Virus record (IMG/VR): IMGVR_UViG_3300021093_003900
Coordinates: 51,057 to 115,056 of that record
DNA: 64,000 nucleotides
DNA from: a virus
Direction: 5' to 3' (one strand)
Of this stretch, positions 5,163 through 32,285 are shown in pieces. The notes under the pieces were generated by a model that saw nothing but the letters and a program-made list of their open reading frames with translations, had not been told where the DNA came from and made no database searches. How positions within the stretch are numbered: position 1 is the first letter of the stretch; every line of letters starts with the position of its first letter. A program made the position numbers and the translations under genes.

Positions 5163-5165
5163 TTT

Positions 5166-7661: not shown

Positions 7662-7665
7662 ATTA

Positions 7666-8277
7666 TTATTTTTTTATGAAGAAACCATCACCCCAAGTAC
7701 CACCATCCCAAGTTTGCTCAACTAATTCGAAACCGTACGGGGATAAGAAATCGATTAATTGTTCAATACGCGTACAGTCTTGGTAGAGCTCGTCTCGATT
7801 TATTTCGGACATAATATAGTCAATATTGTGTAAAGTTTTCTCGGCACCTTTAAATACCTCCAATTCATAACCTTGGACATCAATATTTATAAAGTTGAAA
7901 CCTAAAAGATCAATACCCAAATCGTCTAATCGTTTCATTTCAACTTCTTCAGTTGACTCAAATTTGATATGTGGATATTGTGTAAGATGTAATACTGGAT
8001 TCAAAATCGAACTAGATTGACCGTTATTAGCTGTTTCAACATTCATTGAAATTTTTTTATTATCATTTCCTAAGGCAATATTCATCAACGTATAGTTTTC
8101 ACCAATATTGTTTTTTAATACTTTAAAGTTTGATGATAAAGGTTCAAAAAAAATTCTTCTTTGTATACCAAGATCGTTATATGCATTGTTTTCCTCACCG
8201 AAGTGGGCACCAATATGAAGAACGCCATTGATCTTCATATTGTATTTATTGACGATTGCGTTTAAGTTAAGCAACAT
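7666..8277 (-). CDS. FkbM-family methyltransferase
   Basis: LHIGAHFGEE, FFEP, SSSIL, NIDVQGYELEV, WGD. Confidence 0.85.
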   Translation of the reverse strand: MLLNLNAIVNKYNMKINGVLHIGAHFGEENNAYNDLGIQRRIFFEPLSSNFKVLKNNIGENYTLMNIALGNDNKKISMNVETANNGQSSSILNPVLHLTQYPHIKFESTEEVEMKRLDDLGIDLLGFNFINIDVQGYELEVFKGAEKTLHNIDYIMSEINRDELYQDCTRIEQLIDFLSPYGFELVEQTWDGGTWGDGFFIKK

Positions 8278-9813: not shown

Positions 9814-9814
9814 A

Positions 9815-16768: not shown

Positions 16769-18937
16769 ATGGCTTATCAAAACATTAATCAGTATGTCAA
16801 ATCAAAATTGTATTTACAACCTGTTTTACAAATTTCTGACATTTCATTGGCCGCTGATGAGAGAGAATACAATGAAGAAGTTGTGTTCTCACCACTTATT
16901 ATTGGTGCAAATGATGGTGATGTTTTACCTGTAAAAATTGATTTAAATTTTTCTGGATCCTCTCAAAAAATCAATTTGACTTTTGGTGATTACAAAAGAG
17001 AAAACGTAATCATTTCTGAAAATTATTATAATCCATACGATTATATTTTAGATTGTTTTTCTGGAAAAAGTATTTGTGATATTGGTTTGACTGGTACGGA
17101 TAATGGTTTGGTTACGGGAATGACGGGACAGAGTATTTCTTACACCGAGGGACTATTGCCAAATAATACAAAATTTGATCGATTGAAATTTGACCGTAGA
17201 TTGAAATTATTTCAAGTTACAGGATATACGAGCCATCCAAATCATAGATTTTCAGGAATAACGGCTGAGACCTCGTATGAAATGGTTTCTTATACCGCAA
17301 ACACCATAGGAACTTACAACGAATTATACGGTGGTTTTTACCAAGGGTTTTATGAACTATTTGGATATGAATACAAAATACTACCTGAAAGATATACCAA
17401 AGGTTGGACTGTAGAGATGACATTAAAGCCTAGGATCTACAATCAATATACAACCCCGTCTGGTAAAACAACATTAAATTCATATTACCCAAATAATTCT
17501 GGAATATTTTTTTATATGGGAACTCGTGCTGAAAACAAATACTGGCATTTTGCACAAGGTAAAAACCCAACAGATCCAAATTACGATAGAGTAACTAGAA
17601 GGCTTTTAGATTTAAGTACTTGTGATTGCAAAACACTTAATCCTGGTTATTCTACAAATTCAACAACTCATTTTGATTTAAGTGTTTCAGGTGCAACAAT
17701 ACAAGTAGGTCAAGATTTATTATGGGCATCAGGTGACATTTGTGTTGTTTATCATAACGAAATTGCATTCCTGACTGGGAATGTTATTGGGTATACAGCA
17801 TCGACTAATTCATTACAATTTGTTACAACTTATCGTGTGGGTAAAGGAGATTTCAAATACTGGGTTGTGGATAAATTAAATTTCTTGGAATACAATAATT
17901 CCGATTGTTATTTTGTTTATCCCCCAACAGGCGTTACTGATTATCACTACACGGAAAGTCCTTGTTGTCCAGATGAACCCCAAGTACCTGTCCCTGAGCA
18001 AGACGCGGCTTACAATGGAATGTCTAATGCTTTAGCTATACGATTTAGTGGTGATCCAACTAACCCAAAAATTTGTATACGTACATTAACAATGACAGGT
18101 GATTGCATCACAAGTGGAAGTTGTGAAACTACTGGATATGAATCGCAAACAGGTTACTCAATAAATAACTATTGTACAACTAGGAGAATATACGATGATT
18201 GTAGTGGGACAACTTATTCTTTAGGTGAAAATTGGGTTCTAGTCGATGTTAGCTTTGAAAGGAACACCGCACTTGATGAGTGTGATTTGGTTTATCTTGG
18301 TGGATTAGGTGTAATATCGAATATGGTATTCACAGCATCTACGGATAGTAATTCAGTATCACTTATCTCTCCACCAATAACTCATTACCAACTAAACCCA
18401 GAAACAGAAGAACTTGTACAACTGAACAATGATTGGCTTCTTGAAAAGGGGTTTCGGAAAGGTAAATTAAGAATTTTTGTTAATGGTAAGTTATTCGAAA
18501 CTTTCGATAATGTTGAAGAAATAATACCTAGGGGTTTGTATGGACACAAAGAAACTCAAGTGGGTGTACCATTCAATATTTCTTGGGGTGGTGGTACCCA
18601 AGGATTGCATGAAAACCTAGTATTCAGTGCTATACCAACAACCGATTTAAACTATTACATACAAGACCCAGAATTGTTTCCACCAAATATTTTGAGTGGA
18701 ACAAGTCTTAGTGCTTTAACAACAAATATTCTTATTGAACAAAACTTTGCTGGCACTTTTGATGGGGGTATATCATCATTTTCTATGTATGCAAAACCTC
18801 TGACTATTCCTGAGGTTCAACATAATGCAAGAATACTTAAACCAAAATATAATTTTTTGAATCCTTTTTGCCTGAATTGTATTGATTCAACGCCAACACC
18901 TACCCCTTCAATAACCCCAACACCAACACCAACTTGA
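16769..18937 (+). CDS. LamG/concanavalin-like virion protein with C-terminal Pro-Thr repeat
   Basis: WTVEM, GKLRIFVNGKL, FDGGISSFSMYAKPLT..EVQHN; ends STPTPTPSITPTPTPT; Cys-rich. Confidence 0.65.
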   Translation: MAYQNINQYVKSKLYLQPVLQISDISLAADEREYNEEVVFSPLIIGANDGDVLPVKIDLNFSGSSQKINLTFGDYKRENVIISENYYNPYDYILDCFSGKSICDIGLTGTDNGLVTGMTGQSISYTEGLLPNNTKFDRLKFDRRLKLFQVTGYTSHPNHRFSGITAETSYEMVSYTANTIGTYNELYGGFYQGFYELFGYEYKILPERYTKGWTVEMTLKPRIYNQYTTPSGKTTLNSYYPNNSGIFFYMGTRAENKYWHFAQGKNPTDPNYDRVTRRLLDLSTCDCKTLNPGYSTNSTTHFDLSVSGATIQVGQDLLWASGDICVVYHNEIAFLTGNVIGYTASTNSLQFVTTYRVGKGDFKYWVVDKLNFLEYNNSDCYFVYPPTGVTDYHYTESPCCPDEPQVPVPEQDAAYNGMSNALAIRFSGDPTNPKICIRTLTMTGDCITSGSCETTGYESQTGYSINNYCTTRRIYDDCSGTTYSLGENWVLVDVSFERNTALDECDLVYLGGLGVISNMVFTASTDSNSVSLISPPITHYQLNPETEELVQLNNDWLLEKGFRKGKLRIFVNGKLFETFDNVEEIIPRGLYGHKETQVGVPFNISWGGGTQGLHENLVFSAIPTTDLNYYIQDPELFPPNILSGTSLSALTTNILIEQNFAGTFDGGISSFSMYAKPLTIPEVQHNARILKPKYNFLNPFCLNCIDSTPTPTPSITPTPTPT

Positions 18938-19050
18938 GCGTCAAATGATTCTTGACAAGTCGGTAATTAGTAATAGAACTTTTTGAAAAAAAACAAAGTG
19001 TTATTTATTTTAAAATTTAGAAAGTTATTTTTCAAATAAAATTAATTTAT

Positions 19051-20304
19051 ATGAAAATATTCATTCAGATAGCATCTTACAGAGATCCTGAGTTGAAAAA
19101 AACTATAGCCAATTGCCTTGAAAACGCCGATAAACCTGAAAATTTAGTTTTTGGTATTGCACGTCAATTTCACCCTGATGATAAATTCGACGACTTAACT
19201 GAGTATATGACAGATGAGAGATTTCGAATTTTGAACATTCCATACAATGAATCAAAAGGTGCGTGTTGGGCTAGAAACCAAATTCAACAACTATACAATA
19301 AAGAACAATATACAATGCAATTGGATTCCCACATGAGATTTGCACCTCACTGGGACACTGAAATGATTGGTATGATAAAACAATTACAGAAAAAAGGATA
19401 TAAAAAACCTTTGTTAACTGGTTATGTTTCTTCTTTTGACCCAGATAACGACCCTAGTGCTAGAGTACAAGAACCTTGGAGGATGGTATTCGATCGTTTT
19501 ATTCCTGAAGGTGCTGTATTTTTTCTTCCTGAAACAATACCAAATTGGCAAACATTGACTGAACCAGTTCCAGCAAGATTCTACTCAGCTCATTACGCAT
19601 TTACTTTAGGTAAATTTACTAAGGAAGTTCAGCACAACCCTGAATATTATTTTCACGGTGAAGAAATTTCAATAGCGGCGAGAGCTTATACTTGGGGTTA
19701 TGATTTATTTCACCCACATAAAGTTTTAATCTGGCACGAATACACAAGAAAAGGTAGAACTAAACAGTGGGATGATGATAAACAATGGGTTGATAAAAAC
19801 AATGTTTCCCATTTAACAAATCGAAAGTTATTTGGTATGGATGGATTACCACAAGAAGGACATGACGGTAAATATGGATTCGGAAAGGCCAGAAGTCTCC
19901 AAGATTATGAAAAATATTCAGGATTACTTTTTGAAAAACGTGCTGTTCAACAATACACGCTCGATAAAAACTATCCACCAAACCCTTATAACTACTCAAC
20001 AGAAGAAGAGTGGAAAGCCGATTTTGCAATGATATTCAAACATTGTATTGATATCGGATATTCACAGGTACCTGAAAAAGATTATGATTTTTGGGTTGTG
20101 GCTTTTCACGATGAAACTGATGAGACTATCTTCAGAAAAGATGCGGACAAGGGAGAGATCGCAAGAATGATGAACGACCCAGATGGGTATTGTAAAGTAT
20201 GGAGAGAGTTCCAGACAGCACATAAACCAAAATATTGGGTAGTTTGGCCACACTCAGAGTCTAAGGGATGGTGTGAAAGAATTACTGGAAATTTACCATT
20301 TTAA
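19051..20304 (+). CDS. GT60-type polypeptide N-acetylglucosaminyltransferase (Skp1 Gnt1-like)
   Basis: IFIQIASYRDPEL, SKGACWAR, QLDSHMRF..WD, LLTGY, FHGEEI..AAR..TWGYD, G..R....YE. Confidence 0.85.
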   Translation: MKIFIQIASYRDPELKKTIANCLENADKPENLVFGIARQFHPDDKFDDLTEYMTDERFRILNIPYNESKGACWARNQIQQLYNKEQYTMQLDSHMRFAPHWDTEMIGMIKQLQKKGYKKPLLTGYVSSFDPDNDPSARVQEPWRMVFDRFIPEGAVFFLPETIPNWQTLTEPVPARFYSAHYAFTLGKFTKEVQHNPEYYFHGEEISIAARAYTWGYDLFHPHKVLIWHEYTRKGRTKQWDDDKQWVDKNNVSHLTNRKLFGMDGLPQEGHDGKYGFGKARSLQDYEKYSGLLFEKRAVQQYTLDKNYPPNPYNYSTEEEWKADFAMIFKHCIDIGYSQVPEKDYDFWVVAFHDETDETIFRKDADKGEIARMMNDPDGYCKVWREFQTAHKPKYWVVWPHSESKGWCERITGNLPF

Positions 20305-20308
20305 ATTT

Positions 20309-20938
20309 ATGATTGATTTAAAAAAAACATTTGAAGATTTTAATATCCAATGTTCGGGTATAATTCATGTCGGGGGGCACCAAGCACAAGAATATCAAAC
20401 ATATAAGGAAATTGGTATACAACATCAAATTTGGATCGAAGCTAACCCGTTTTATTATTCACAAATATTGGAAGTAATTAAAAATGATGAGTTTTCTATC
20501 GCCTTTAATTATTTAATTCTTGATGAAGAAAAAGAAGTTTCATTCAATTTGGCTAATAATGGTCAATCATCATCTGTTTTACCACTCAAAAATCATATTA
20601 AATACTACCCAAATATCAAGTTTGATGGTCAAATGTTGACAACTAGTAAAAGATTAGACTCATTGATCAAAGAATACAAAATTGAAGTAGAGAACTATAA
20701 TGGATTAGTTGTTGACGTACAAGGTGTTGAATTAAAAGTACTTATGTCCTTGGGATCATTGTTACAAAACTTCAAATTTATACAATCAGAAGTTAATTTA
20801 GAAGAACTTTATGAGGGTTGTTGTCTTATAGATGATTTAGACAAATATTTAGAACAATTTGGGTTTGAAAGGAAGATTACTAAGTTATGGGATAATGGTT
20901 CTGTAGGTTGGGGTGATGCTATGTATATTAAAATATGA
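20309..20938 (+). CDS. FkbM-family methyltransferase
   Basis: IHVGGH, WIEAN, SSSVL, DVQGVELKVL, LYEG, WGDA; start reassigned to MIDLKK. Confidence 0.85.
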   Translation: MIDLKKTFEDFNIQCSGIIHVGGHQAQEYQTYKEIGIQHQIWIEANPFYYSQILEVIKNDEFSIAFNYLILDEEKEVSFNLANNGQSSSVLPLKNHIKYYPNIKFDGQMLTTSKRLDSLIKEYKIEVENYNGLVVDVQGVELKVLMSLGSLLQNFKFIQSEVNLEELYEGCCLIDDLDKYLEQFGFERKITKLWDNGSVGWGDAMYIKI

Positions 20939-21684
20939 TTAATTTTTGTATTTTATACTGGGATATGGGTTGTGAAATAAGGAAACAGAATTCTATTATT
21001 TCATGGTTTGAATTGAAAAAAATGACTTACTATTTGAAGTCAAGAGGTTTGAATATCAATGCTTATTTATTCGAATTCGGTAACAATTTTATATTTGAAG
21101 ATTCAATAAAAATAAAAGATAAATTGGAATATTATGAAAAATCCAAAAAAAATAATCTAGCTATTAATCACAATTTGAATGACTATAGTGATTTTATAGC
21201 AATAATGGATTCTGATTTATTTTTTTGTGAAAATCAATATGAAATGATTTATAATCATTTGACTGAATTAATTGAAAGTAAAGAACGGAAATTTTTTACA
21301 TATAATTTACTTGATATTGATTATGAAGAAAGAAATCAAATTATTGATTTTGAAAAAAATCAATTAATGTATGAAAAAATTGATGAGTTTAATTTGAAAT
21401 ATTCTTGGAGACATTCTTTTGGTGCTGGTGTATTGGGTGGTATTTTTATCGTACCAACACCAGAAATTAGGAAAATGGACGGGTTCGATGAAAATTTTCT
21501 TACATGGGGTGCTGAAGATGATGAAGCATTTGTAAGATTAAAATATTTTGCTACGTGGTATCCTAAAATGAATGAAGGACCATATCATCTATGGCATCCA
21601 AAAAATGAAACAGATCCCAAATATTATATTCCTGTATATTCAGATGAATATTTTAAAATTAATAAAGTAAAAAATCCAAGATGA
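20935..21684 (+). CDS. GT2/GT7-like glycosyltransferase (galactosyltransferase C-terminal motif)
   Basis: MDSD, GGIF, GFDENFLTWGAEDDE, YHLWHP. Confidence 0.78.
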   Translation: MINFCILYWDMGCEIRKQNSIISWFELKKMTYYLKSRGLNINAYLFEFGNNFIFEDSIKIKDKLEYYEKSKKNNLAINHNLNDYSDFIAIMDSDLFFCENQYEMIYNHLTELIESKERKFFTYNLLDIDYEERNQIIDFEKNQLMYEKIDEFNLKYSWRHSFGAGVLGGIFIVPTPEIRKMDGFDENFLTWGAEDDEAFVRLKYFATWYPKMNEGPYHLWHPKNETDPKYYIPVYSDEYFKINKVKNPR

Positions 21685-22430
21685 AAAATAATTTAATTAC
21701 TTTTGTTACATTTTGTGTCGACATTGGTCGTGGTGATTTACCTTTGGAAAATTCTATTCATAGAAACTTTGAGCTTTACAAGGCTGGTATGTATGAAAAC
21801 ATAAATACAAAAGTTCCAATGGTTCTTTTTTCATCCGTTGAAGATTTAAAAATCCCTGACTATAGAAATTTAACAAACTTTCGTCATATACCTTTAACAA
21901 AATCATTAATTGAGAATGATTTCCCAAATTTTGAATTATATCGTGAATTTTACCCTGTAACAAAAAAAGACGAAATTGAAAATTCATTGTTTTATTATAC
22001 ACCTTTAGTTGTATTAAAAATGAAAAAAATGATAGAAATATCAAAATTAAATCCTTTTGGAAGTGAAATATTTTTATGGATAGATTGTTTTTTTACTAGA
22101 GGATTGCCAAATTTAGATTTCATGAATGAAGAAGTTGATTACCTAATGATGTGTGGAAATGTGAAAAAAAAGTTGAGTAATAACAAATTTGTTTTGTTAA
22201 ATTGGGGTCCAAGACCTTTTGGTTTTTTTTGGGGTGGTACAACACAAGCTTTGCAAAATATGTACGAACACTACTTTGAAATTTTCTTCGAGTATCTACC
22301 AACCAAATTAATGACAGAGGAATTAATCTTTAAAGAAATCAATGAAAGATATCCAAATTTAATCAATATGATACAAGTTGAAAATGCCATTGATTATAAA
22401 TTAGCTTGTAGTAATTTTATGACAAAATGA
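21681..22430 (+). CDS. HtrL/YibB-like putative glycosyltransferase
   Basis: TFVTFCVDIGR, NPFGS..FLWID, FWGG, TEE. Confidence 0.65.
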   Translation: MKNNLITFVTFCVDIGRGDLPLENSIHRNFELYKAGMYENINTKVPMVLFSSVEDLKIPDYRNLTNFRHIPLTKSLIENDFPNFELYREFYPVTKKDEIENSLFYYTPLVVLKMKKMIEISKLNPFGSEIFLWIDCFFTRGLPNLDFMNEEVDYLMMCGNVKKKLSNNKFVLLNWGPRPFGFFWGGTTQALQNMYEHYFEIFFEYLPTKLMTEELIFKEINERYPNLINMIQVENAIDYKLACSNFMTK

Positions 22431-23200
22431 TAGTATATTCTGATTTTAATAAAGGTCGACTTGGAAATCAACTTTTTTTTGTGGCATCAACTATTGGTAT
22501 AGCATATAAAAATCATACAAATTTTGGTTTTTCAACTCAAATGGCGTCTGGTACCGATAACTACCAATCTTTGTTTAAAAAAAATTTACCGATAGTTCAT
22601 TCAGTGCCTGAAAATAAATTTCATCAAAATGGATTTAATTATCAAGACATACAAATCAATGACGTTGAATTGTTTGGATATTATCAATCTGAGAAATTTT
22701 TCAAGCATTGTGAAGATATAATTTTAGAACAATTTGATTTTAATGAAAAATTTATTGAAATATGTTCTACACTATATCCGAATGTAACTAACTCATTATC
22801 TTTACATGTTAGACGTGGAGACTATTTGTCTCAACCAAACCATCACCCAACATTACCTCTGAAATACTATGAAATAATACTCTCTGAAATTTCGAAAAAT
22901 TATGAAAATATTCTTATTTTCAGTGATGATTCAGATTGGGTAAAAAGTAACTTTATTGGAGATAATTATATTTTTCCAACATTTGATACTGAAAATGTTT
23001 TAAAAAGTTTTGTATTAATGTCAATGTGCTCTGATAACATTATATCAAACTCTACATACAGTTGGTGGGCGGCTTGGTTAAATAGGAATAAAAACAAAAA
23101 TATTTATTCACCAAACCATAGTCAATGGTTTGGTTCGTCGTATTCCAATTTGGATACTTCTGATTTAATACCTAATAATTGGATACAAATCAAATTCTGA
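22427..23200 (+). CDS. GT11 alpha-1,2-fucosyltransferase-like protein
   Basis: GRLGNQLF, GYYQSEK, HVRRGDY, FSDD, NSTYSWW. Confidence 0.88.
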   Translation: MIVYSDFNKGRLGNQLFFVASTIGIAYKNHTNFGFSTQMASGTDNYQSLFKKNLPIVHSVPENKFHQNGFNYQDIQINDVELFGYYQSEKFFKHCEDIILEQFDFNEKFIEICSTLYPNVTNSLSLHVRRGDYLSQPNHHPTLPLKYYEIILSEISKNYENILIFSDDSDWVKSNFIGDNYIFPTFDTENVLKSFVLMSMCSDNIISNSTYSWWAAWLNRNKNKNIYSPNHSQWFGSSYSNLDTSDLIPNNWIQIKF

Positions 23201-23835
23201 TGATACATAAAATAGTTTCTTTTTATCACAAAAACTTGAACCCTGAAATTAAGATTTTACAAAAAAAAGTTTTTGATTATTTAGATATTGATTTAGTTCA
23301 ATTTGAATTTACTGACAGTCATCCAGTCGCCATTGAATTTTTTTTAGAAAATAACAAATGGGATTTGATTACATTATTCGATGTGGATTGTATTCCTACT
23401 GAAAAAAAAATTATAGATAATATATTGGAAATTATTGATGACAATACAATTTATGGTAATGCTCAATTTTCTAATTGTTTACCTTATGTAGGCCCTAGTT
23501 TTATGTCATTTAATAAAAAATTATATGAAAATTCAATTCACAAAAAATTTCATGATGGTCTTTATCTTTGTGGAGATAAATTTCATCACTTAGATGTGGG
23601 TGAAATTTTTGTAAAAGAAAACTTAAAGTTTGGTAACAAACAAGTTCTCAGTTATCCAGTTTCAGTTGAAGAAAAAAAATGGAAATTTATAGGGAATGAA
23701 TTATACCCAAGTTTTGAGTTTGGAGTTGGGACATTATTTGATAATAAAACATTTCATTGTTTTCAAATTAGATTTGAGACTAATCAACACATTTTTAAAC
23801 TTTTTGTTAATAATTTATTAAATGAAAAAAATTAA
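23200..23835 (+). CDS. putative GT-A glycosyltransferase
   Basis: LFDVDCIP DxD motif, DVGE, FG.GT, FH; start reassigned to MIHKIV. Confidence 0.55.
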   Translation: MIHKIVSFYHKNLNPEIKILQKKVFDYLDIDLVQFEFTDSHPVAIEFFLENNKWDLITLFDVDCIPTEKKIIDNILEIIDDNTIYGNAQFSNCLPYVGPSFMSFNKKLYENSIHKKFHDGLYLCGDKFHHLDVGEIFVKENLKFGNKQVLSYPVSVEEKKWKFIGNELYPSFEFGVGTLFDNKTFHCFQIRFETNQHIFKLFVNNLLNEKN

Positions 23836-24721
23836 ATTTATCACTTGTATTTATACAGATCTATACGGTTCTGAACTAGGTGGGAGACCTGGTAGATTTC
23901 ATCATTACAGGTGGAGTCTACTTTCGCTTTTGAAAATGACAGAAGCTGATTTTATTTGTTATACATCAGCCAGTGAATTTTTATCATTGAAACAATTTTT
24001 TTTTGAAGAAAATTCTATTTCTGAGGATCAATTGAAAATTGAAATTTTTGATATTTGGAATTGTAAATATAAAAATTTACTAAAACAAACAAAAAATTTG
24101 GAATTTACTAAAGGGGGTGACCGTTGTATAGAAATACAATACTCTAAATTTGCATGGTGGTACTATGAAGATAAAACGTATGATTATTATTATTGGATAG
24201 ACGCTGGACTATCACATTGTGGTTTAATCCCAGTAAAATACTTAGATCCAAAGTCTTATATGGCAAGTTTTTATGAATGTAATCTTTTCAATAATGATTT
24301 TTTAAATAATCTTATTGAATATACTCAAGACAAATTTTTTTTAATTGGTAAAGACAATGTCCGTAACTTTTGGTCTCAAACCGTTGATCCTAAATGGTAT
24401 AAAAATTATGATAATACTATTCACATAATTGGAGGATTATTTGGCGGCAAACGAGAAAAATGGGATGAAATTGTAAAATTGTTCGAAAATTACATTGAAC
24501 AAATTTTGATTGATGACTTTAAGTCACAAGACAAAGAATTACCACATGAAGAACAAATAATGTCCCTTATGTGGGTAAATCATCAAGATTTATTTATACG
24601 GAAACATTTTGACATATGGTGGTGTCCTGATAGTGGTCCTAGAGATGCGTTACCAGAAATATACACACAAAATAAAAGTTTTTATAGAATCTTAGAGGAA
24701 TTTAATAGAATTTATGAATAA
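23822..24721 (+). CDS. HtrL/YibB-like putative glycosyltransferase
   Basis: QYSK, YYWIDAGL, IGGLFGG, HEEQIM. Confidence 0.65.
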   Translation: MKKIKFITCIYTDLYGSELGGRPGRFHHYRWSLLSLLKMTEADFICYTSASEFLSLKQFFFEENSISEDQLKIEIFDIWNCKYKNLLKQTKNLEFTKGGDRCIEIQYSKFAWWYYEDKTYDYYYWIDAGLSHCGLIPVKYLDPKSYMASFYECNLFNNDFLNNLIEYTQDKFFLIGKDNVRNFWSQTVDPKWYKNYDNTIHIIGGLFGGKREKWDEIVKLFENYIEQILIDDFKSQDKELPHEEQIMSLMWVNHQDLFIRKHFDIWWCPDSGPRDALPEIYTQNKSFYRILEEFNRIYE

Positions 24722-26384
24722 TACAACTTTAGTCACTGGTTTATGGAATATAAACCGCCACGCATTATCTGAAGGGTGGTCAAGAAATTTCGATCATTAC
24801 TTATCGAAATTAGAACAATTATTAAAAATTGACGAAAATCTTATTATTTTTGGAGATAAGGATTTAGAAAAATGGGTATTTGAACGAAGACAACAACATA
24901 ATACTCAATTTATTGTAAGAGAATTGAATTGGTTCAAAAATGAATTCCACAAAAAAATTCAAAGAATCAGATTGGATTCATCATGGTACTCACAATCAAG
25001 TTGGTTACCACAATCAACACAAGCAAAATTAGAAATGTATAATCCATTAGTTATGTCAAAAGTTTTTCTTTTACACGACGCAAAAATAATGGATCGATTT
25101 GATTCAACACATTTATTTTGGATAGATGCTGGTATAACGAACACTGTTCATCCGGGTTATTTTACACATGACAAGGTTTTAAATAAATTGAGTAAATTAA
25201 AAAACATAACTTTTATCGCGTTCCCATACGAAGCTGAAAATGAAATTCACGGTTTCGATTATTCGGAAATGTGTAGAATGGTAAATAAAAAAATTGATAA
25301 GGTATGTCGTGGTGGTTTTTTTGGTGGCCCAAAAGAAAAAATAGGAGATTTTAACCCTCTTTATTATAGTTTGATGAGTAATACATTATCTCGTGGTTAT
25401 ATGGGTACTGAAGAATCACTTTTTACACTTTTGACGTATCAACACCCAGAAATTTTTGAATATTTTGAAATTGAGTCAAATGGTCTAATATCAAAATTTT
25501 TTGAAGATCTGAAGAATGATCAACACAAAATAAAAAGTGAGAGTTTAACACCTATCTCTGGAAACAATTTAGACATCAATAATTCCGCACTTTATGTAAT
25601 CACATTTAATAGTCCAAAACAATTTGAAACTTTAATAGAGTCAATGATTCAGTATGATTGTAATTTCATAGACAAACCAAAAAAGTACTTGTTAAATAAT
25701 TCTAGTGATGATTCAACATTTGACAAGTATGATGAGTTGTGTGCACAATATGAGTTTATTCATATCAAAAAAGATAATCTTGGAATTTGTGGTGGAAGAC
25801 AGTTCATAGCTGAACATGCCGAAGCCAACGACTTTGATTACTATTTCTTTTTTGAGGATGATATGTTTTTTTATCCAAAAAAAGGAGAAGTTTGTCGAAA
25901 CGGTTTTAATAGATATGTGAGTAATTTCTATAATAATGTTCTCCAAATTATTCAAAAACACAATTTTGATTTTCTTAAATTTAATTATTCAGAATTTTTT
26001 GGAGATAATGGAACTCAATGGTCTTGGTATAATGTACCACAATTCGTAAGAGAACAATTTTGGCCGGGTAAAAATAGATTACCTGAGTTAGGGTTAGATC
26101 CTAATGCTCCTAGAACTAGATACGAACATATTTGGTCACACAATGGTATTCCCTATGTGAGTGGTGAAGTTTACTACTCGAATTGGCCTCAAGTAGTTTC
26201 TAGAGAAGGAAACAAAAAAATGTTTTTGAATACAACTTGGGCACATCCTTTCGAACAGACGTGGATGTCTCATATTTTTCAGGAAACCAAAAAAAACAAT
26301 ATTAAACCTGCTTTGTTAATGATGACTCCAACCGAACACAACAGATTCGAATTTTATGACAAAAATTTGAGAAAAGAATCTTAA
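24714..26384 (+). CDS. two-domain glycosyltransferase (HtrL-like + GT-A)
   Basis: TLVTGLWNI, FWIDAG, GGFFGG, TEE; second domain NLGICGGRQ, FFEDD. Confidence 0.72.
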   Translation: MNNTTLVTGLWNINRHALSEGWSRNFDHYLSKLEQLLKIDENLIIFGDKDLEKWVFERRQQHNTQFIVRELNWFKNEFHKKIQRIRLDSSWYSQSSWLPQSTQAKLEMYNPLVMSKVFLLHDAKIMDRFDSTHLFWIDAGITNTVHPGYFTHDKVLNKLSKLKNITFIAFPYEAENEIHGFDYSEMCRMVNKKIDKVCRGGFFGGPKEKIGDFNPLYYSLMSNTLSRGYMGTEESLFTLLTYQHPEIFEYFEIESNGLISKFFEDLKNDQHKIKSESLTPISGNNLDINNSALYVITFNSPKQFETLIESMIQYDCNFIDKPKKYLLNNSSDDSTFDKYDELCAQYEFIHIKKDNLGICGGRQFIAEHAEANDFDYYFFFEDDMFFYPKKGEVCRNGFNRYVSNFYNNVLQIIQKHNFDFLKFNYSEFFGDNGTQWSWYNVPQFVREQFWPGKNRLPELGLDPNAPRTRYEHIWSHNGIPYVSGEVYYSNWPQVVSREGNKKMFLNTTWAHPFEQTWMSHIFQETKKNNIKPALLMMTPTEHNRFEFYDKNLRKES

Positions 26385-26407
26385 CGAGTATTTATTGTAA
26401 AAATCGG

Positions 26408-26788
26408 ATGAATTTTTACATAAATAAAAACGCTAATTTACCGCTTCTAAAAATGCAAGTGGTGAAGGATGGTAGGAGTGAATATCAAGAGTTCATGCGA
26501 CTACTAGAAACATCTTCAATCTTTTTCACAATGATCAATAGTGAATCAGGTATTCCGAAGATTGTTTCAAAACCAGCGTACATTGTGGAGTTGACTAACG
26601 TTGACGACAACGCTCAAGTCGAATATTATGTTTATTTCAGGTTTACAAAAAAAGATACAAATAAGGTAGGAACCTACAAAGGTCAGTTTTTGATTAAATC
26701 AACAGAGGGTGATCTTATTTTACCTTTGAGAGAAGAACTGAACATTTATATCCAAGAAAGTTTTATCATTGACAGTCCTTGTTGTTGA
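26408..26788 (+). CDS. BppU-N-like Ig-fold structural protein
   Basis: FYINKNANLP.L ... Y.F...DT...G.Y.GQF pattern; TATTTAT upstream. Confidence 0.5.
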   Translation: MNFYINKNANLPLLKMQVVKDGRSEYQEFMRLLETSSIFFTMINSESGIPKIVSKPAYIVELTNVDDNAQVEYYVYFRFTKKDTNKVGTYKGQFLIKSTEGDLILPLREELNIYIQESFIIDSPCC

Positions 26789-26808
26789 TCCATTTTTTAC
26801 TATCTTTG
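26779..26808 (+). promoter_or_regulatory. Bacteroidota-type promoter TTG-N19-TATCTTTG
   Basis: Exact match to the TAnnTTTG -7 element with TTG 19 nt upstream, before the DNA polymerase. Confidence 0.6.
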
Positions 26809-26830
26809 ATAGGATAAGTCATAAACAAAA

Positions 26831-29587
26831 ATGATCACAACAGAAGAAATCAAAAGTTTTTTAGAGGGTAACGATCCAGAAGAGCATATAGTCGCACTTG
26901 AGTTCGATTATGCAAGTGAAGATATCTTTAAAATCAAGGAAATCCCTAGTAAAGGTAAACAAATTGTCAGGGATACTTTTATTCCGTTTTGTTGGGTTGG
27001 TGATTTACGTAAATTAAACTTTTATGGAGGATCAAAAGCTCAACAGAAAGAGGCGATGTCCAAACATAAAATTCTTATTGAAAAACTAGAAACTCACGAC
27101 AATGAAAGATTAACCCAAGGTCTTACATTCTTGGTAAAATCCTTAAAAGGATATAGAAATCTTATTCAGTTTTTTCGTGATGGTGGTATAGATCCTTGGG
27201 GTGATGCGGCAAAAGAACAATTTCTATTATTACCACCAGTTGAACAATATTTGATTCAAAAAGAAAAAAGATTATTCAAAGGATATGAAGAATACAACGA
27301 TATCACTCGATTTGTATTTGACTTAGAGACGACCGCACTTGATCCAAAAGATGGTCGTATTTTTATGATTGGTATGAAGACAAATAAAGGTTTTCATCAA
27401 GTTATTGAATGTCTCACAGAAGAACAAGAAAAACACGGATTGATTGAGTTTTTCAGGACAATACACAAACTTAATCCAAGTATCATTGGTGGTTACAATA
27501 GCTTTAACTTTGACTGGCAATGGATCATTGAAAGATCCAAAGCTCTTGGTTTGGATATGAAGAAAATTTGTATAACCCTCAATCCAGAAAGACATTTCTC
27601 ACAAAAAGAACAATTGCTCAAACTTGGTAATGAGGTTGAGAAATTCAATCAGATTGGAATGTGGGGATATAATGTAATTGATATTCTTCATGCTGTGAGA
27701 AGAGCTCAATCAATCAATTCAAATATCAAAAGTGCTGGTCTTAAGTATATCACACAATACTTGGAACTAGAAAGTCCAAATCGTATTTACATAGATCATC
27801 AAAACATCGGTAAGATGTATGAAAAAAAAGAGGAGTATTGGTTAAATATTAACAATGGAAAATATAAAAAAGCTGATATTCCTGAGTTTGCAAACTTAGA
27901 TCAAAGATTTCCATCAGTTTATGAAAAAGTTACTGGAGATAAAATTGTTGAGATGTATCTTGACGATGACTTGGATGAAACTTTACGTGTTGATGAAGAG
28001 TTCAATCAAGGTTCTTTTCTTCTAGCATCTCTTGTACCAACGACTTATGAAAGAGTTTCTACAATGGGAACCGCGACGTTATGGAAAATGATTATGCTCG
28101 CTTGGTCATACAAACACAACTTAGCAATTCCGAAAAAACAAGAAAAAAAGGATTTTGTGGGTGGATTATCACGTCTTATTAAAGTGGGTTATTCTACCAA
28201 TGTTCTTAAACTCGACTTTAGTTCACTTTATCCTTCTATTCAACTTGTACACGAAGTTTTTCCTGATTGTGATGTGACTGGGGTGCTCAGAGGATTTTTG
28301 AAGTTTTTCCGTGATTCTCGTATATTATACAAACAACTTGCGGAAGAATTACACGAGACAGATCCAAAAAAATCAAAATCATACGATAGAAAACAATTAC
28401 CTATCAAAATCTTTATCAATAGTATGTTTGGTGCCCTGTCAGCACCTCAAGTCTTTGCTTGGGGTGATATGTATATGGGAGAACAAATTACCTGTACTGG
28501 TAGACAATATCTTCGTCAAATGACAAAATTCTTTATGGCACGTGGTTATGAACCACTTGTGATGGATACGGACGGTATTAACTTCTCAGCACCAAACGGG
28601 GTTGAAGATCGAGTTTATATTGGTCGAGGTAACAATTGGAAAGTTAAAAAGGGTAAAGAGTACAAAGGCACTGCGGCTGATATTGCTGAGTATAATGATA
28701 TTTTTATGCGTGGTGAGATGGCGTTAGATAACGATGGTGTGTGGCCAAGTTGTATAAACATCGCCAGAAAAAACTACGCACTTCTCACAGAAAAAGGAAA
28801 AATCAAGTTGGTTGGAAACACTATTAAGTCAAAAAAATTACCGGGTTATATCGAGGAGTTTCTTGATAAGGGAATTAAATTATTACTTCAAGGTAAGGGA
28901 AAAGAATTTGTCGAGTTTTATTATGAATATCTGACAAAGATCTACAATATGGAAATTCCTTTAGTCAAAGTAGCTCAAAGAGGTAAAATAAAACAAAGTA
29001 TCTCTGACTATGAAAAAAGATGTAAACAAACAACTAAGGCGGGTAATTTGATGGCAAGACAAGCACATATGGAACTTGTAATTCAAAAAGGGATGAGTGT
29101 TAATTTGGGTGATGTTATTTATTACGTCAACGATGGAACTAAAATCTCTCAAGGTGATGTGTCCAAAAAGGGTGATACTATTACATTAAATTGTTATTTG
29201 GTAAGTCAAAGCGACATTGATAATAATCCGAATTTAACAGGTGTGTATAATGTTCCTCGAGCAATCTCAGTATTCAATAAACGTATTGAACCACTTTTGG
29301 TTGTGTTCAAACCAGAAGTTAGGGATATTTTGTTAGTCACCAATCCAGAACAAAGAGAGTATTTCACAACTCTACAATGTCAACTTGTAAATGGACAACC
29401 TTTTAATGAAACCGATCAAGATAATTTACAAAGAGATGTCTTGGAAATTACCGAACAAGAGTTGGAGTATTGGAAAAAGAGGGGTCTTGATCCGAACTAC
29501 ATTTACGATCAAGCTGCAGATGGGTGGGAAAAAGTGGTAACTTACCAAAGTTTAACACCATCAGAAGAAAGTATGTACCAATTGTGA
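26831..29587 (+). CDS. polB: family B DNA polymerase
   Basis: FDLETT, GYNSFNFDW, DFSSLYPSI, K...NSMFG, DTDG, RKNYA. Confidence 0.93.
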   Translation: MITTEEIKSFLEGNDPEEHIVALEFDYASEDIFKIKEIPSKGKQIVRDTFIPFCWVGDLRKLNFYGGSKAQQKEAMSKHKILIEKLETHDNERLTQGLTFLVKSLKGYRNLIQFFRDGGIDPWGDAAKEQFLLLPPVEQYLIQKEKRLFKGYEEYNDITRFVFDLETTALDPKDGRIFMIGMKTNKGFHQVIECLTEEQEKHGLIEFFRTIHKLNPSIIGGYNSFNFDWQWIIERSKALGLDMKKICITLNPERHFSQKEQLLKLGNEVEKFNQIGMWGYNVIDILHAVRRAQSINSNIKSAGLKYITQYLELESPNRIYIDHQNIGKMYEKKEEYWLNINNGKYKKADIPEFANLDQRFPSVYEKVTGDKIVEMYLDDDLDETLRVDEEFNQGSFLLASLVPTTYERVSTMGTATLWKMIMLAWSYKHNLAIPKKQEKKDFVGGLSRLIKVGYSTNVLKLDFSSLYPSIQLVHEVFPDCDVTGVLRGFLKFFRDSRILYKQLAEELHETDPKKSKSYDRKQLPIKIFINSMFGALSAPQVFAWGDMYMGEQITCTGRQYLRQMTKFFMARGYEPLVMDTDGINFSAPNGVEDRVYIGRGNNWKVKKGKEYKGTAADIAEYNDIFMRGEMALDNDGVWPSCINIARKNYALLTEKGKIKLVGNTIKSKKLPGYIEEFLDKGIKLLLQGKGKEFVEFYYEYLTKIYNMEIPLVKVAQRGKIKQSISDYEKRCKQTTKAGNLMARQAHMELVIQKGMSVNLGDVIYYVNDGTKISQGDVSKKGDTITLNCYLVSQSDIDNNPNLTGVYNVPRAISVFNKRIEPLLVVFKPEVRDILLVTNPEQREYFTTLQCQLVNGQPFNETDQDNLQRDVLEITEQELEYWKKRGLDPNYIYDQAADGWEKVVTYQSLTPSEESMYQL

Positions 29588-29877
29588 TATATGAAAACTA
29601 ATTCAATACAAGATCCTTTTTCTATTTGAATTTCATCCCAATACTCATCAATTCTATTTTCATCTGGAATGATCAAAACATTGGTCATAGCTTTGATTTT
29701 CACTCTATCTGTTGTTTGACTATTTAATTTAATTGTACAAATTTCAACATCTTTTACAACAATAGCATATTCTCCATTTGTTGTATACAACGCTTCGGAT
29801 ACAACGGCTAACTCAGAAGTTTTGACCTGTATTCCGTTAATTATTTTTTCACTTGGTATTGTTCTTATTATTGCCAT
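29542..29877 (-). CDS. hypothetical beta-rich protein, possibly structural
   Basis: 111-aa ORF coupled to the neck gene; overlaps polB convergently by 46 nt. Confidence 0.65.
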   Translation of the reverse strand: MAIIRTIPSEKIINGIQVKTSELAVVSEALYTTNGEYAIVVKDVEICTIKLNSQTTDRVKIKAMTNVLIIPDENRIDEYWDEIQIEKGSCIELVFIYHNWYILSSDGVKLW

Positions 29878-29878
29878 C

Positions 29879-30994
29879 TTAGACTGTTGTAATTGGTACT
29901 GGGAAGGCTCTGTATTGCATTTGTTTATTCAGACTTTCAGCAATATCTGCTTCTCTTTTCATTAGAAATTCTGGTCTTAATCTTTCAAGTCTTTTTGTTA
30001 GTTCCTCTAATAAAATTGTTTTTTCATCTTTAGCCTCCGTAGATAGTGATGCATAATCCATTTGAAGTTCACTATCTGGTGCTTTAAGATTTCCACTGAA
30101 TTTACCTCTTACACGAGCTAAAGTTTCTTTAGCATAAGCTGTTAACCACCTTCTTACCCATTGTTGAGCAGGATCATTCAGATCTTGCCATGATAGTACA
30201 TCTAATGGGATATCGGAGGGTAATTTTACAATATCAGGATTATCCTTCAGACATTGATCCCTATCCTTATCATAGGTATCATAATACCAATACCACACTT
30301 TTCCTCTATTAAGTTCTGAATTACCAAAGTCAAATTTACCACCGGGTGTATTATAAAGCATAATCGCTTTTTTTCCATTAGGAAGTGCTGTAACTCTATA
30401 TTGTAGATCTGGTTGAATAATTCTTCTTTTTATATTAATATCTTGTTGACGAGCTAATACATCATATGATGAAAAGAAAAAGTATCCACCACCACCCCAA
30501 CCCGGTTGAGCATAACCACCAGCACCACCAATTCCAGGACCACCTAATCCTCCAAATGACCAAGGGTCAAAAAGAATGTTACTTTGTTCTGCTGGAGAAA
30601 ACCATAAAAGTTCATTCAATTCACGTCCAGCTGGTATTTCGTATATTTGTTGATTTGCTTGTAATTGAATGTAATCTTTTTTTAGCACCCACGACCCTGA
30701 ATTTTGTAAACCAACAATTTTAGAATAAGCGTAAGTATATTGAGTTTCCCAATCTAGTGATCTTCTAACCAATGCATTTGCCACTGATTGTGTTTCCAAG
30801 TTTAAACCATATAGGGATGTCCATTGAGACTCAATTAACCAGTCTTGTACGTACTGGGTGTAATCACCAATTGATAATTCCATAAGTGAATCCATCATTT
30901 CATCTGTAAGTTCTACAGAACGTAGAGGTGCTCCTAAGAGGTTATAAATCCTCTTGTACATTCTACTTCTATCTGGTTCAGCTATTATTGTCAT
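29879..30994 (-). CDS. neck/head-tail adaptor protein (T4 gp13-like)
   Basis: LGAP...VELTDE N-terminus; W..R...A.AKE.L..VRGKF C-terminus. Confidence 0.75.
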   Translation of the reverse strand: MTIIAEPDRSRMYKRIYNLLGAPLRSVELTDEMMDSLMELSIGDYTQYVQDWLIESQWTSLYGLNLETQSVANALVRRSLDWETQYTYAYSKIVGLQNSGSWVLKKDYIQLQANQQIYEIPAGRELNELLWFSPAEQSNILFDPWSFGGLGGPGIGGAGGYAQPGWGGGGYFFFSSYDVLARQQDINIKRRIIQPDLQYRVTALPNGKKAIMLYNTPGGKFDFGNSELNRGKVWYWYYDTYDKDRDQCLKDNPDIVKLPSDIPLDVLSWQDLNDPAQQWVRRWLTAYAKETLARVRGKFSGNLKAPDSELQMDYASLSTEAKDEKTILLEELTKRLERLRPEFLMKREADIAESLNKQMQYRAFPVPITTV

Positions 30995-31015
30995 AAATTA
31001 CTCTAAATTTGTCGA

Positions 31016-31262
31016 GTTTCACTAGGTGTATTAGTTAAGGTTCTGTCGGTGTTGGTGTGTTTGTTACTGTTTCACTAGGTGTATTAGTTGGTGTTTCTGT
31101 CGGTGTTGGTGTGTTTGTTACTGTTTCACTAGGTGTATTAGTTGGTGTTTCTGTCGGTGTTGGTGTGTTTGTTACCGTTTCACTAGGTGTATTAGTTGGT
31201 GTTTCTGTCGGTGTTGGTGTGTTTGTTACTGTTTCACTAGGTGTATTAGTTGGTGTTTCTGT
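31016..31262. repeat. 54-bp tandem repeat ([18 protein letters not shown]), about 4.5 copies
   Basis: TTCACTAGGTGTATTAGTT recurs at 31018, 31071, 31125, 31179, 31233. Confidence 0.95.
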
Positions 31263-31562
31263 ATTCGTAGGTGTTATAGATGGTGTTTGTGTATGAGTAG
31301 GAGTTTGTGTTGGTGTTAGTGTATTTGTTGGTGTTTGTGTATTAGAAGGAGTTTGTGTTGGTGTGGGGGGAAAATAAGTTGTATTTGTTATTAGTTGACC
31401 CTCACTTGCGGTAAGAAGAGTTCCTTCTATGTACCAAACATTAACAACTTCATTTGGCATAAGTCGTTGGTCATTAATAAGCATATTATCACCACATCTT
31501 CTATAACTGATAGAACTTATTTGGGATAATTGATTTTCAATTGTGGATTTTTTACAAAACAT
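31035..31562 (-). CDS. mucin-like Thr/Pro-repeat protein
   Basis: ~65-aa N-terminal domain followed by ~110 aa of T/P/S/N/E repeats; TATTTAT upstream. Confidence 0.75.
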
Positions 31563-31595: not shown

Positions 31596-32285
31596 CTATA
31601 ATTTATCAGCCACGTACTCCCAATCAACAACTCTCCAAAAATTTTTTATGTATTCGTCTCTTCTGTTTTGATATTTTAGATAATATGCGTGTTCCCACAC
31701 ATCCAAACCAAGTATTGGTTTTCCGCCATCTTTAACAAAACTCATCATTGGATTGTCTTGATTTGGTGTTGTTATAATTTTTAATTTACCATTATCTTTG
31801 AGTATTAACCAAACCCAACCAGAACCAAATACAGTTTTTGCTGCCTCATCAAACTTTTTTTTAAATTCCTTAAGGGTTCCAAAATTTGAATTTATTCTTG
31901 ATTCAAGTTTTGTTGGTATTTTTGATGGATTAGGTGTCATCATTTCCCAAAATAAAGAATGATTATATGCTCCACCAGCATTATCACGAATTAATTTTTC
32001 GTTTTCTTTTACCGATGAAACAATCTCTTCCAACGACATATTTTCATATCGTTTTCCTTTAGTTGCAAGATTAAGTTTGTCCACGTATCCTTTGTAATGT
32101 TTTGTATAGTGAACATTCATCGTTGTTGGATCGATAAAAGCCTTTAGTGATGTAAATGAATATGGTAGTGGTTCAACAACAACATTACCTTGTTTAATCT
32201 TGGATTTTTTTTGTTCTTCTATTAATCTTCTACGTTCTTCAATTTTCTGTTCAATTAACTCAATTCTATTTTCCAAATATTTCAT
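31596..32285 (-). CDS. sodA: Fe/Mn superoxide dismutase (Mn-type residues) with N-terminal extension
   Basis: HYTKH..YV, NAGG..NHSLFW, FGSGWVWL, NQDNP, DVWEHAYY. Confidence 0.92.
   Translation of the reverse strand: MKYLENRIELIEQKIEERRRLIEEQKKSKIKQGNVVVEPLPYSFTSLKAFIDPTTMNVHYTKHYKGYVDKLNLATKGKRYENMSLEEIVSSVKENEKLIRDNAGGAYNHSLFWEMMTPNPSKIPTKLESRINSNFGTLKEFKKKFDEAAKTVFGSGWVWLILKDNGKLKIITTPNQDNPMMSFVKDGGKPILGLDVWEHAYYLKYQNRRDEYIKNFWRVVDWEYVADKL

Follow-up and report, generated by a model that had tools for sequence, protein, structure and literature searches.

The window analyzed here, a 64,000-nucleotide (nt) stretch covering bases 51057-115056 of the 115-kb viral record IMGVR_UViG_3300021093_003900, contains a gene for a soluble GT60-family glycosyltransferase. 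This gene lies directly downstream of a gene whose protein product ends in a Thr-Pro tail, and it heads a run of further glycosyltransferase and methyltransferase genes (Table 1). A second protein that is rich in Thr/Pro repeats is encoded beyond this run on the opposite strand. A first-pass annotation, made from the DNA letters, read these elements as a candidate mucin-type protein O-glycosylation system, and the translations place the open reading frames (ORFs) and motifs where it had put them, including the Thr-Pro end directly upstream of the GT60 gene. What is the acceptor of the GT60 enzyme? We propose that the enzyme glycosylates the Thr/Pro tracts of the phage's own proteins in a cytoplasmic protein O-glycosylation system, a reading that we hold to be slightly more probable than its denial.

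The 417-amino-acid (aa) product of the GT60 gene was originally described as GT60/Gnt1-like, and a hidden Markov model (HMM) search upholds this assignment. The protein matches the PF11397 'GlcNAc' profile at 221.6 bits (cut-off 21; E 2.6e-65) over profile positions 2-44 and 91-351, and it matches phrog_24687 'glycosyltransferase' with an E value of 1.3e-171. D92-S93-H94 (in LDSHMRF), E204/E205 and H229 (in WHEY) are kept across 50 GT60 homologues with identities down to 33%; D92, S93 and H94 are each at least 90% conserved, and the invariant H229 may serve as the C-terminal metal ligand of the GT-A type. The DxH motif instead of DxD marks GT27 and GT60, which are sister families that have polypeptide Ser/Thr O-glycosylation in common and of which GT60 is recorded in prokaryotes and protists (PMC7185993). 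With the GT60 protein as query, the PDB yielded no sequence match at E values up to 1. The AlphaFold2 (AF2) model of the enzyme has a predicted local distance difference test score (pLDDT) of 95.6, and the top ~36 listed Foldseek matches of this model are all GT27 polypeptide GalNAc-transferases (E 8e-11). Likewise, ranks 1-29 of a VIA-align comparison are all GT27 enzymes (Z 19.2-22.6; root-mean-square deviation 3.3-3.9 over 260-282 residues), and the best non-GT27 enzymes reach a Z of at most 18.0, with polysaccharide synthases at ~17. Residues ~300-417 form a small beta-rich C-terminal domain in the model, and the protein has no hydrophobic segment. Given the PF11397 match, the DxH motif and a predicted fold nearest to GT27, membership in GT60 is well founded, and the protein looks like an enzyme that takes a polypeptide acceptor. 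By analogy, we propose that it is an initiating polypeptide O-N-acetylhexosamine (HexNAc) transferase. An 18-nt tandem repeat of 2.4 copies inside the gene (19762-19804), which encodes KQWDDDKQW, is probably incidental.

The protist members of GT60, namely Trypanosoma cruzi TcOGNT1/2, the Dictyostelium Golgi enzyme and Gnt1, belong to the same PF11397 family and carry the same DxH in place of DxD. Their acceptors are Thr-rich mucin-like tracts or hydroxyproline, and the phage gene adjoins genes for Thr/Pro tracts. Unlike the protist enzymes, the phage enzyme has no membrane anchor, possesses a distinct beta-rich C-terminal domain of ~115 aa and is accompanied by different partners of the HtrL-like and GT2-like types. 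Because it has no membrane anchor, the phage enzyme would act in the bacterial cytoplasm. The metazoan and apicomplexan GT27 enzymes provide the nearest solved structures over the catalytic domain and share the DxH motif and the layout of a catalytic domain followed by a C-terminal beta domain. However, GT27 is a different family with only 11-13% identity to the phage enzyme, and its members use UDP-GalNAc and reside in the Golgi as type II membrane proteins.

The candidate acceptor upstream of the GT60 gene, across a gap of 113 nt, is a 722-aa protein with a conserved core of ~705 aa and a 16-residue Thr-Pro tail (C-terminus STPTPTPSITPTPTPT). Homologues of this protein (44-98% identity) lie upstream of GT60 in 59 loci of related phages. 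Many of them are 900-1585 aa long and carry Thr-Pro tracts after approximately residue 705, where the core continues via Thr-Pro linkers to distal domains; the L025 homologue, for example, ends in a Laminin_G_3 domain. The core itself has no match in Pfam (E <0.01), PHROG or the PDB (E up to 1), a tblastn search with the protein found no match in 50,697 phage records, and its AF2 model, built from a 15-sequence alignment, is poor (pLDDT 35) and was not used for a fold search. The earlier description of the protein as LamG-like is tentative: hhalign aligns it with the C-terminal Laminin_G_3 of the homologues over the last 37 columns only (82% probability), and an Atlas lead for the same reading scores 0.89, against the missing Pfam match.

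The second candidate acceptor, which had been described as a small domain plus ~110 aa of Thr/Pro repeats, indeed consists of a 65-aa N-terminal domain and a Thr/Pro repeat tract of 111 aa, and it lacks a distal domain. Thr makes up 43% and Pro 23% of residues 65-175. At the DNA level, the tract, which lies 10.7 kb from the GT60 gene, corresponds to 4.6 tandem copies of a 54-nt unit (96% match; 31016-31262). The array extends 19 nt beyond the stop codon, which arises from an altered last copy, an arrangement that points to recent truncation or to a shift in the number of repeats. By a composition criterion, Thr-Pro tracts are confined in the 115-kb contig to the ORFs of the 722-aa and 175-aa proteins; the other ORFs, including the head genes with the major head protein and the tail sheath, have no such tract. 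Neither protein has a signal peptide, and none of the 25 proteins examined, the candidate acceptors among them, has a hydrophobic segment (maximum KD19 <1.4). A 126-aa protein encoded downstream of the glycosyltransferase run is a single domain in the window, and many of its homologues are 190-641 aa long, with the same domain followed by a Thr-Pro linker and distal domains. In the relatives, the Thr-Pro tracts link the domains of modular proteins, and both tract proteins are shortened in the window phage so that they end in or just after the linker.

How general is the neighbourhood of GT60 and Thr-Pro proteins? At least 573 IMG/VR stretches encode this GT60, of which 155 loci were fetched; homologue counts are given over 157 related loci. 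The shared gene order comprises a 722-aa homologue, 0-4 further proteins, GT60, variable transferases, the 299-aa, 556-aa and 126-aa proteins, and a family-B DNA polymerase (PolB). In a first sample of 43 clusters at 97% GT60 identity, a same-strand Thr-Pro tract gene is found at position -1 of GT60 in 26 of the 43, at -2 in 20, at -3 in 13 and at +1 or +2 in none. A second sample of 48 clusters at 90% identity, whose GT60s are 62-82% identical to that of the window, gives 25/47 at -1, 13/41 at -2 and 0/48 at +1. Thus, in 53-60% of ~90 dereplicated IMG/VR relatives, the gene next upstream of GT60 encodes a Thr-Pro tract; the genome-wide rate is ~2% of genes (2/117 in this contig and 7 of ~330 in the relative G001). 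The upstream proteins are modular, with a small N-terminal domain of a few recurring types, one or more Thr/Pro tracts and variable distal domains, and the tracts reach up to 318 residues in one stretch. In the closest relatives, a 2194-aa tract protein stands between the 722-aa homologue and GT60, and in L009 this ORF is headed by the same 65-aa domain as the 175-aa protein of the window. A search for GT60-less sister phages that would permit a presence/absence comparison found none.

The association extends to cultured phages and to bacteria. XacN1, Xoo-sp13, CM1 and RAS14 are the only 4 of the 50,697 phage records with this GT60 (45-49% identity). Like the window, XacN1 has a GT60 homologue (ORF334, 49% identical), a homologue of the 556-aa enzyme (ORF330, 39% identity, E 1.7e-145) and a homologue of the 299-aa protein (ORF332, 28% identity, E 4e-19). 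In the three loci inspected (XacN1, Xoo-sp13 and RAS14), an HtrL-like 546-aa gene corresponding to ORF330 is present, as identified by BLAST in XacN1 and Xoo-sp13 and by synteny in RAS14, and a giant protein ending in TP/SP tracts is encoded ~9 kb from GT60; in XacN1, this giant protein follows the baseplate-wedge genes. Outside these four GT60 phages, which count as one clade, no phage record has the Thr-Pro C-terminal region of XacN1 ORF325, and CM1 matches only the non-repeat part of that region. In XacN1 virions, no fewer than two glycoproteins are Schiff-positive; the authors held ORF328/ORF334 responsible but named neither the glycosyltransferase family nor a link to tracts (PMC5852040). 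The XacN1 cluster differs from that of the window in having a carbamoyltransferase instead of fucosyl and methyl genes. The gene directly after GT60 in L003 (11409-13706), L004 (11390-13687) and L100 (16509-18809) is an ORF of ~766 aa that is annotated as a carbamoyltransferase in XacN1 and Xoo-sp13 and is unannotated in RAS14, which hints that the glycans of the Xanthomonas and Stenotrophomonas jumbo phages may be carbamoylated in place of fucosyl or methyl decoration.

GT60 homologues also occur at no fewer than 548 loci in bacterial species genomes, including Chitinophaga, Sphingobacterium, Acidobacteriaceae, Burkholderia and Verrucomicrobiota. We compared Ser/Thr/Pro tracts of at least 30 aa between GT60-adjacent genes and other genes within 10 kb using a binomial test. 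The tracts are ten times commoner in the adjacent genes (6/143 versus 4/915, p 8e-4), and the enrichment persists after dereplication at 60% identity (4/69 versus 3/423, p 0.009). At the loci L232, L234, L246, L182, L205 and L197, the proteins encoded next to or near GT60 include Tat-signal proteins with long Ser/Thr/Pro tracts, a PqqD-domain protein with a Thr/Pro/Ser repeat tail, ferritin-like Tat lipoproteins that contain TP linkers, and a Ralstonia VgrG spike whose C-terminal tail is a 130-aa (TP)n tract; the VgrG gene lies ~0.9 kb from GT60 and was not counted as adjacent. The bacterial neighbours also include a protein with a type IX secretion sorting domain and an fn3-TP-BNR protein. 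Since tract adjacency recurs in unrelated bacteria, it is not explained by inherited phage synteny. Together, the cultured phages, the bacterial enrichment and the XacN1 glycoproteins argue with moderate force that the GT60/tract association is more than inherited gene order. The co-occurrence that the first-pass annotation had suggested checking is borne out across related phages, and more weakly in unrelated bacteria.

The chief rival to tract glycosylation, which we regard as unlikely, is that the glycosyltransferase set acts on a different acceptor, such as ordinary Ser/Thr/Asn sites of other virion proteins (mycobacteriophages and chloroviruses being precedents), a lipid-linked or free glycan, or the host envelope during infection, and that the tracts are plain linkers within fibre or decoration proteins whose adjacency to GT60 is inherited in a hypervariable region. 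Much of what speaks for this rival also weighs against tract glycosylation as such. Thr-Pro proteins are encoded at four other places of G001 that are far from GT60, five of its seven Thr-Pro genes are distant from GT60, and the divergent relatives L123, L143, L159 and L164 have no Thr-Pro ORF within 10 kb. At most bacterial GT60 loci (>85%), no tract protein is encoded next to GT60. As flexible linkers, Thr-Pro tracts are common and need not be glycosylated, and because phage synteny is inherited, the many phage loci are not independent events. The window phage is itself a reduced case in which both candidate acceptors are truncated and could be decaying remnants. The module adjoins replication genes (PolB, an exonuclease and a dUTPase) and lies outside the structural block, the identities of the Schiff-positive XacN1 bands are not reported (PMC5852040), and the C-terminal half of the 556-aa enzyme weakly matches DNA-glucosyltransferase families (see below). 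Our literature search found no functional study of a prokaryotic or phage GT60. Finally, the size of the kit, with ~12 glycosyltransferase domains and a sugar-nucleotide pathway, resembles polysaccharide clusters. On the other side, the closest folds to the GT60 model are the polypeptide-modifying GT27 enzymes, with a clear gap to the polysaccharide GT-A enzymes; the glycan cluster contains no membrane-embedded priming transferase, flippase, polymerase or any hydrophobic segment; and the recurrence of Ser/Thr/Pro adjacency in unrelated bacteria speaks against inheritance of gene order.

Table 1. Genes and gene groups of the window discussed in the text, in order of position.
Feature	Position	Strand	Evidence
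SDR (short-chain dehydrogenase/reductase) epimerase/reductase, best match GDP-fucose synthase	870-2006	-	Pfam, NCBIfam
Five ORFs without family match	2011-5162 and 6149-6859	-	no family
SDR 4,6-dehydratase, best match GMD	5166-6167	-	Pfam, NCBIfam
GT10	6852-7661	-	Pfam
FkbM	7666-8277	-	Pfam
GT11	8267-9091	-	Pfam
GT2	9088-9813	-	Pfam
GT2+GT4 fusion	9815-11458	-	Pfam
dUTPase and stand-alone PolB-exonuclease-like protein	11461-12845	-	
Conserved 373-aa glycosyltransferase	12842-13963	-	phrog_7162 'glycosyltransferase', E 4.6e-45
722-aa phage-only protein, candidate acceptor	16769-18937	+	translation; homologues upstream of GT60 in relatives
GT60-family GT-A glycosyltransferase, 417 aa, soluble	19051-20304	+	PF11397, E 2.6e-65
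FkbM-family methyltransferase, accessory	20273-20938	+	PF05050, E 1.9e-8; homologues in 3/157 loci
GT-A glycosyltransferase (Glyco_transf_7C/GT2-like), accessory	20935-21684	+	PF02709, E 2.9e-9; PF10111, E 2e-4; 3/157 loci
Weak HtrL-like protein	21681-22430	+	PF09612, 22.8 bits, below cut-off 24.1
GT11 (alpha-1,2-fucosyltransferase family), accessory	22427-23200	+	PF01531, E 1e-21; homologues in 4/157 loci
218-aa ORF inside glycosyltransferase run	23179-23835	+	no Pfam or PHROG match even at E 5
299-aa conserved GT60 partner, HtrL-like by motif only	23822-24721	+	homologues in 76/157 loci
556-aa enzyme, N-terminal HtrL_YibB and C-terminal GT2-like	24714-26384	+	PF09612, E 8e-18, 65.4 bits (cut-off 24.1)
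126-aa single-domain protein	26408-26788	+	homologues in 120/157 loci
PolB, adjoining the glycosyltransferase module	26831-29587		
371-aa protein	29879-30994	-	
175-aa protein, candidate acceptor and candidate head-decoration protein	31035-31562	-	translation, tandem repeat, N-domain homologues
Fe/Mn superoxide dismutase	31596-32285	-	

The genes downstream of GT60 fall into a constant and a variable part. The 556-aa enzyme, which also matches TIGR02192 (E 2e-21) and whose C-terminal half matches PF00535 (E 1.4e-4), has homologues in 147/157 loci and is the most constant partner of GT60. The 299-aa ORF has no HMM match and has a GGxFGG region in common with the HtrL domain of the 556-aa enzyme (BLASTP E 0.002). 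Of the three HtrL-like genes originally listed, one is therefore solid, one is borderline and one rests on a motif. Given the frequency of the 556-aa homologues and the scarcity of GT11, FkbM and GT7-like homologues (3-4 of the 157 loci), the conserved core, as read from gene content, is GT60 plus the HtrL/GT2 two-domain enzyme, and the fucosyl and methyl genes are rare lineage-specific accessories. Hence, the genes behind the earlier picture of a fucosylated and O-methylated glycan are present, but the picture itself draws on family names and on genes confined to few loci.

The position and the partners of the module raise the question of whether the glycosyltransferases instead hypermodify phage DNA bases to evade restriction. 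The module abuts PolB, the PolB-exonuclease-like exonuclease and the dUTPase, and the C-terminal half of the 556-aa enzyme weakly matches beta-glucosyl-HMC-alpha-glucosyltransferase (phrog_842, E 1.4e-5) and a TET-associated glycosyltransferase (TAGT, 0.017). Phage glycosyltransferases that build diverse DNA glycans are known, as cited in PMC12619734 (Pyle et al. 2024). However, a thymidylate-synthase-family hydroxymethylase (PF00303) is absent from the contig, from G001 (98% complete) and from the record G002, in a search whose control was positive in 10/14 genomes, and the predicted fold of GT60 is nearest to polypeptide transferases. A search for Tet/JBP (PF12851) gave no match, but the control genomes were silent as well. 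To our knowledge, fucosyltransferase families and FkbM enzymes are not part of DNA-modification systems. We thus consider DNA hypermodification very improbable, and we return to protein glycosylation.

A larger glycan cluster than the GT60 run occupies positions 870-11458, outside the span of 16769-31562 that was first assigned to the system, and its proteins contain no hydrophobic segments. Beyond it on the minus strand lies the conserved 373-aa glycosyltransferase, which has homologues (55-98% identity) in 33 related loci. The original span thus captures the GT60 run, but the machinery extends to 870-11458 and 12842-13963, and the span also takes in the unrelated PolB and two conserved unknown proteins. 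With both clusters, the window phage has the richest elaboration kit among the sampled relatives. The NCBIfam best matches of the two SDR enzymes are gmd at 118.5 bits (equivalog cut-off 415) and Fcl at 100.7 bits (cut-off 500); an equivalog-level match to the gmd/fcl enzymes of the GDP-L-fucose pathway is not reached, and the SDR subfamilies are correct by Pfam. The most coherent guess for the product of the pair is GDP-fucose, because three fucosyltransferase-family genes (one GT10 and two GT11) are present.

We envisage the following mechanism. The soluble GT60 would start the glycan by transferring a HexNAc, most likely N-acetylglucosamine (GlcNAc) from UDP-GlcNAc by analogy with the protist relatives, to the Thr/Pro tracts of the modular phage proteins, with Thr or hydroxylated Pro as the acceptor residue. 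The conserved 299-aa and 556-aa HtrL/GT2 enzymes would lengthen the chain, and the window phage would elaborate it further with GT7C-like, GT11, GT10, GT2 and GT4 transferases and two FkbM methyltransferases; the 4,6-dehydratase and epimerase/reductase pair would probably supply GDP-fucose. The acceptors are expected to follow a common design in which a small domain provides the anchor, Thr/Pro residues form a stalk and the distal domain varies; this design is represented here by the 722-aa protein with the tail only and by the 175-aa protein with the stalk only. Proteins of the 175-aa type are probably head-decoration proteins and would then form a glycosylated brush or stalks on the virion. 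In this scheme, we infer the donor, the acceptor residue (Thr or hydroxyproline), the composition of the glycan, its timing and the virion location.

The acceptor residue deserves separate consideration. GT60 includes the hydroxyproline-specific Gnt1, which acts in the Skp1 pathway after a prolyl 4-hydroxylase. The phage acceptor may likewise be hydroxyproline rather than Thr, with Pro first hydroxylated by a 2-oxoglutarate-Fe(II) (2OG-Fe(II)) oxygenase of the phage or host. The tracts are rich enough in Pro (23%) to be compatible with this pathway, and G001 encodes two PF13640 2OG-Fe(II) oxygenase domains (288908-289207 and 291415-291681; E 3.8e-20 and 2e-15). However, these lie ~210 kb from GT60, and no PF13640-type oxygenase is found in the 115 kb of this phage, in G002 or in G003, all three records being incomplete. 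Moreover, Thr is dominant in the tracts (43%) and is the acceptor of mucin-modifying GT60 enzymes, as exemplified by TcOGNT1, which forms GlcNAc-alpha-O-Thr on mucins (PMC9472816). Hydroxyproline is thus a rather improbable acceptor, and Thr is preferred. One of the G001 PF13640 domains lies inside a 623-aa ORF, and both are possible prolyl hydroxylases.

Are the tract proteins components of the virion? The TATTTAT motif, which had been named a late motif, lies upstream of 16769, 19051 and 31562, at distances of 5, 42 and 17 nt, respectively. Its total number in the window is at chance (37 versus 37.7 expected), but it stands within 40 nt before the start codon in 26/117 genes, compared with 1.1% of random 40-nt windows. 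This concentration before start codons indicates that TATTTAT is a real upstream element. The motif precedes both Thr-Pro genes, the tail sheath gene and other tail genes, and it is likewise found ahead of the DnaB helicase gene and of the gene that precedes PolB. The motif is therefore present and real as claimed, but its lateness is unproven. A clue to the location comes from G001, in which a 140-aa protein is homologous to the 175-aa protein through the N-terminal domain (53% identity, E 2e-28). On the same strand, the gene of this homologue directly follows those of a protease, a scaffold-like protein and the major head protein (phrog_138, E 1.3e-66). Because this is the usual place of a head-decoration gene, the 175-aa type is probably a head-decoration protein. 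Another Thr-Pro protein of G001 combines SprB repeats with a weak Hoc-like match. From this gene order, attachment of the tract proteins to the virion is a reasonable expectation.

Viral glycosylation of virion proteins is known from several systems. Mycobacteriophages use their own glycosyltransferases to add O-linked glycans to the C-termini of capsid and tail-tube subunits in the host cytoplasm (Freeman et al. 2023, as cited in PMC12582341 and PMC12619734). As far as those citing papers describe the mycobacteriophage system, the present one differs in that the major head protein has no Thr-Pro tract, the candidate acceptors are separate modular proteins and the host phylum is different. Freshwater Bacteroidota jumbo phages with DnaK, termed 'moraphages', have several core glycosyltransferase orthogroups whose targets are left open among DNA, host and virion; that study mentions neither GT60 nor Thr-Pro tracts (PMC12619734). 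Virus-encoded glycosylation also occurs in chloroviruses and mimiviruses and includes their own GDP-fucose pathway, with the chlorovirus glycans being N-linked to the capsid protein. The window phage resembles these viruses in having many cytoplasmic glycosyltransferases, sugar-nucleotide enzymes and methyltransferases that, in those viruses, decorate capsid or fibrils independently of the host, but chloroviruses and mimiviruses are eukaryotic viruses, and we know of no GT60-initiated mucin-type tract in them. Phage virion O-glycosylation, giant-virus glycosylation and the guess of the XacN1 authors that glycosyltransferases make virion glycoproteins are therefore already known; the proposed GT60-led mucin-type version would be new, and we found no paper that ties GT60 to Thr/Pro tracts.

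The GT60 family comprises 4,399 representatives at 50% clustering. In addition to the proposal for the window phage, we tentatively suggest a broader one, which we judge somewhat more apt to fail than to hold: that GT60 enzymes are widespread cytoplasmic initiators of mucin-type O-glycosylation in prokaryotes and phages and place HexNAc on long Ser/Thr/Pro tracts of proteins that are assembled or exported folded. Candidate acceptors would then include the stalks of head-decoration proteins and fibres in jumbo phages, the VgrG spikes of type VI secretion systems and surface proteins exported by the Tat route. Such a system would be a bacterial and viral counterpart of eukaryotic mucin glycosylation and would suggest prokaryotic or viral roots of the GT27/GT60 clade. 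Should GT60 indeed act on Thr/Pro stalks, the particles of hundreds of uncultured jumbo phages would bear mucin-like glycoprotein brushes made by the phages' own enzymes, and the coat would affect adsorption, stability, protease resistance, adhesion to particles and the way in which grazers or immune systems recognize the phage. In that case, a function would be assigned to a very large orphan family, the 'PT linkers' of many surface and secreted proteins would become possible glycosylation sites, and a compact, soluble set of cytoplasmic enzymes would be at hand for producing mucin-type glycoproteins in bacteria. The window is less suited to experiments than other instances because both of its acceptor proteins are truncated; the GT60 question is open to direct test in XacN1, Xoo-sp13, CM1 and RAS14, which are cultured. 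As to viral breadth, a viral-contig search with the 38%-identical representative P0194 returned nothing, and a GT60 alignment query in viral contigs recovered the same broad phage clade only, with no second independent IMG/VR phage lineage found. Some representatives of the family (P0124, P0125, P0127, P0136 and P0140) reach giant lengths of 1,600-2,460 aa and contain as many as four stretches that match GT60.

The source of the window is an uncultured freshwater jumbo myophage of ~300 kb, as its gene content (a contractile tail sheath, a DnaB-type helicase, PolB, an SNF2 helicase and an Fe/Mn superoxide dismutase) and the size of its relative G001 (294,914 bp) indicate. The 115-kb record has a CheckV completeness of 38%, and the GC content of the window is ~32%. 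A megablast search with 16769-31562 found no match in the 50,697 phage records. The host probably belongs to the Bacteroidota, given the SprB repeats in the G001 protein and the freshwater jumbo phages with DnaK described in PMC12619734.

Several neighbouring genes have features of their own. The dUTPase encoded between the two glycan clusters carries an N-terminal extension of ~95 aa. The 371-aa protein encoded between PolB and the 175-aa Thr-Pro gene is 57-91% identical to its counterparts in relatives, contains a Gly-rich loop and weakly matches a head-tail adaptor PHROG (E 2.9e-9, residues 276-337). The superoxide dismutase is 229 aa long in the window and 430-555 aa long in most relatives (for example, L021, L052 and L104), whose longer ORFs include an extra C-terminal domain of ~270 aa with no family assigned. 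In the window phage, the 175-aa Thr-Pro gene occupies the place of this C-terminal extension.

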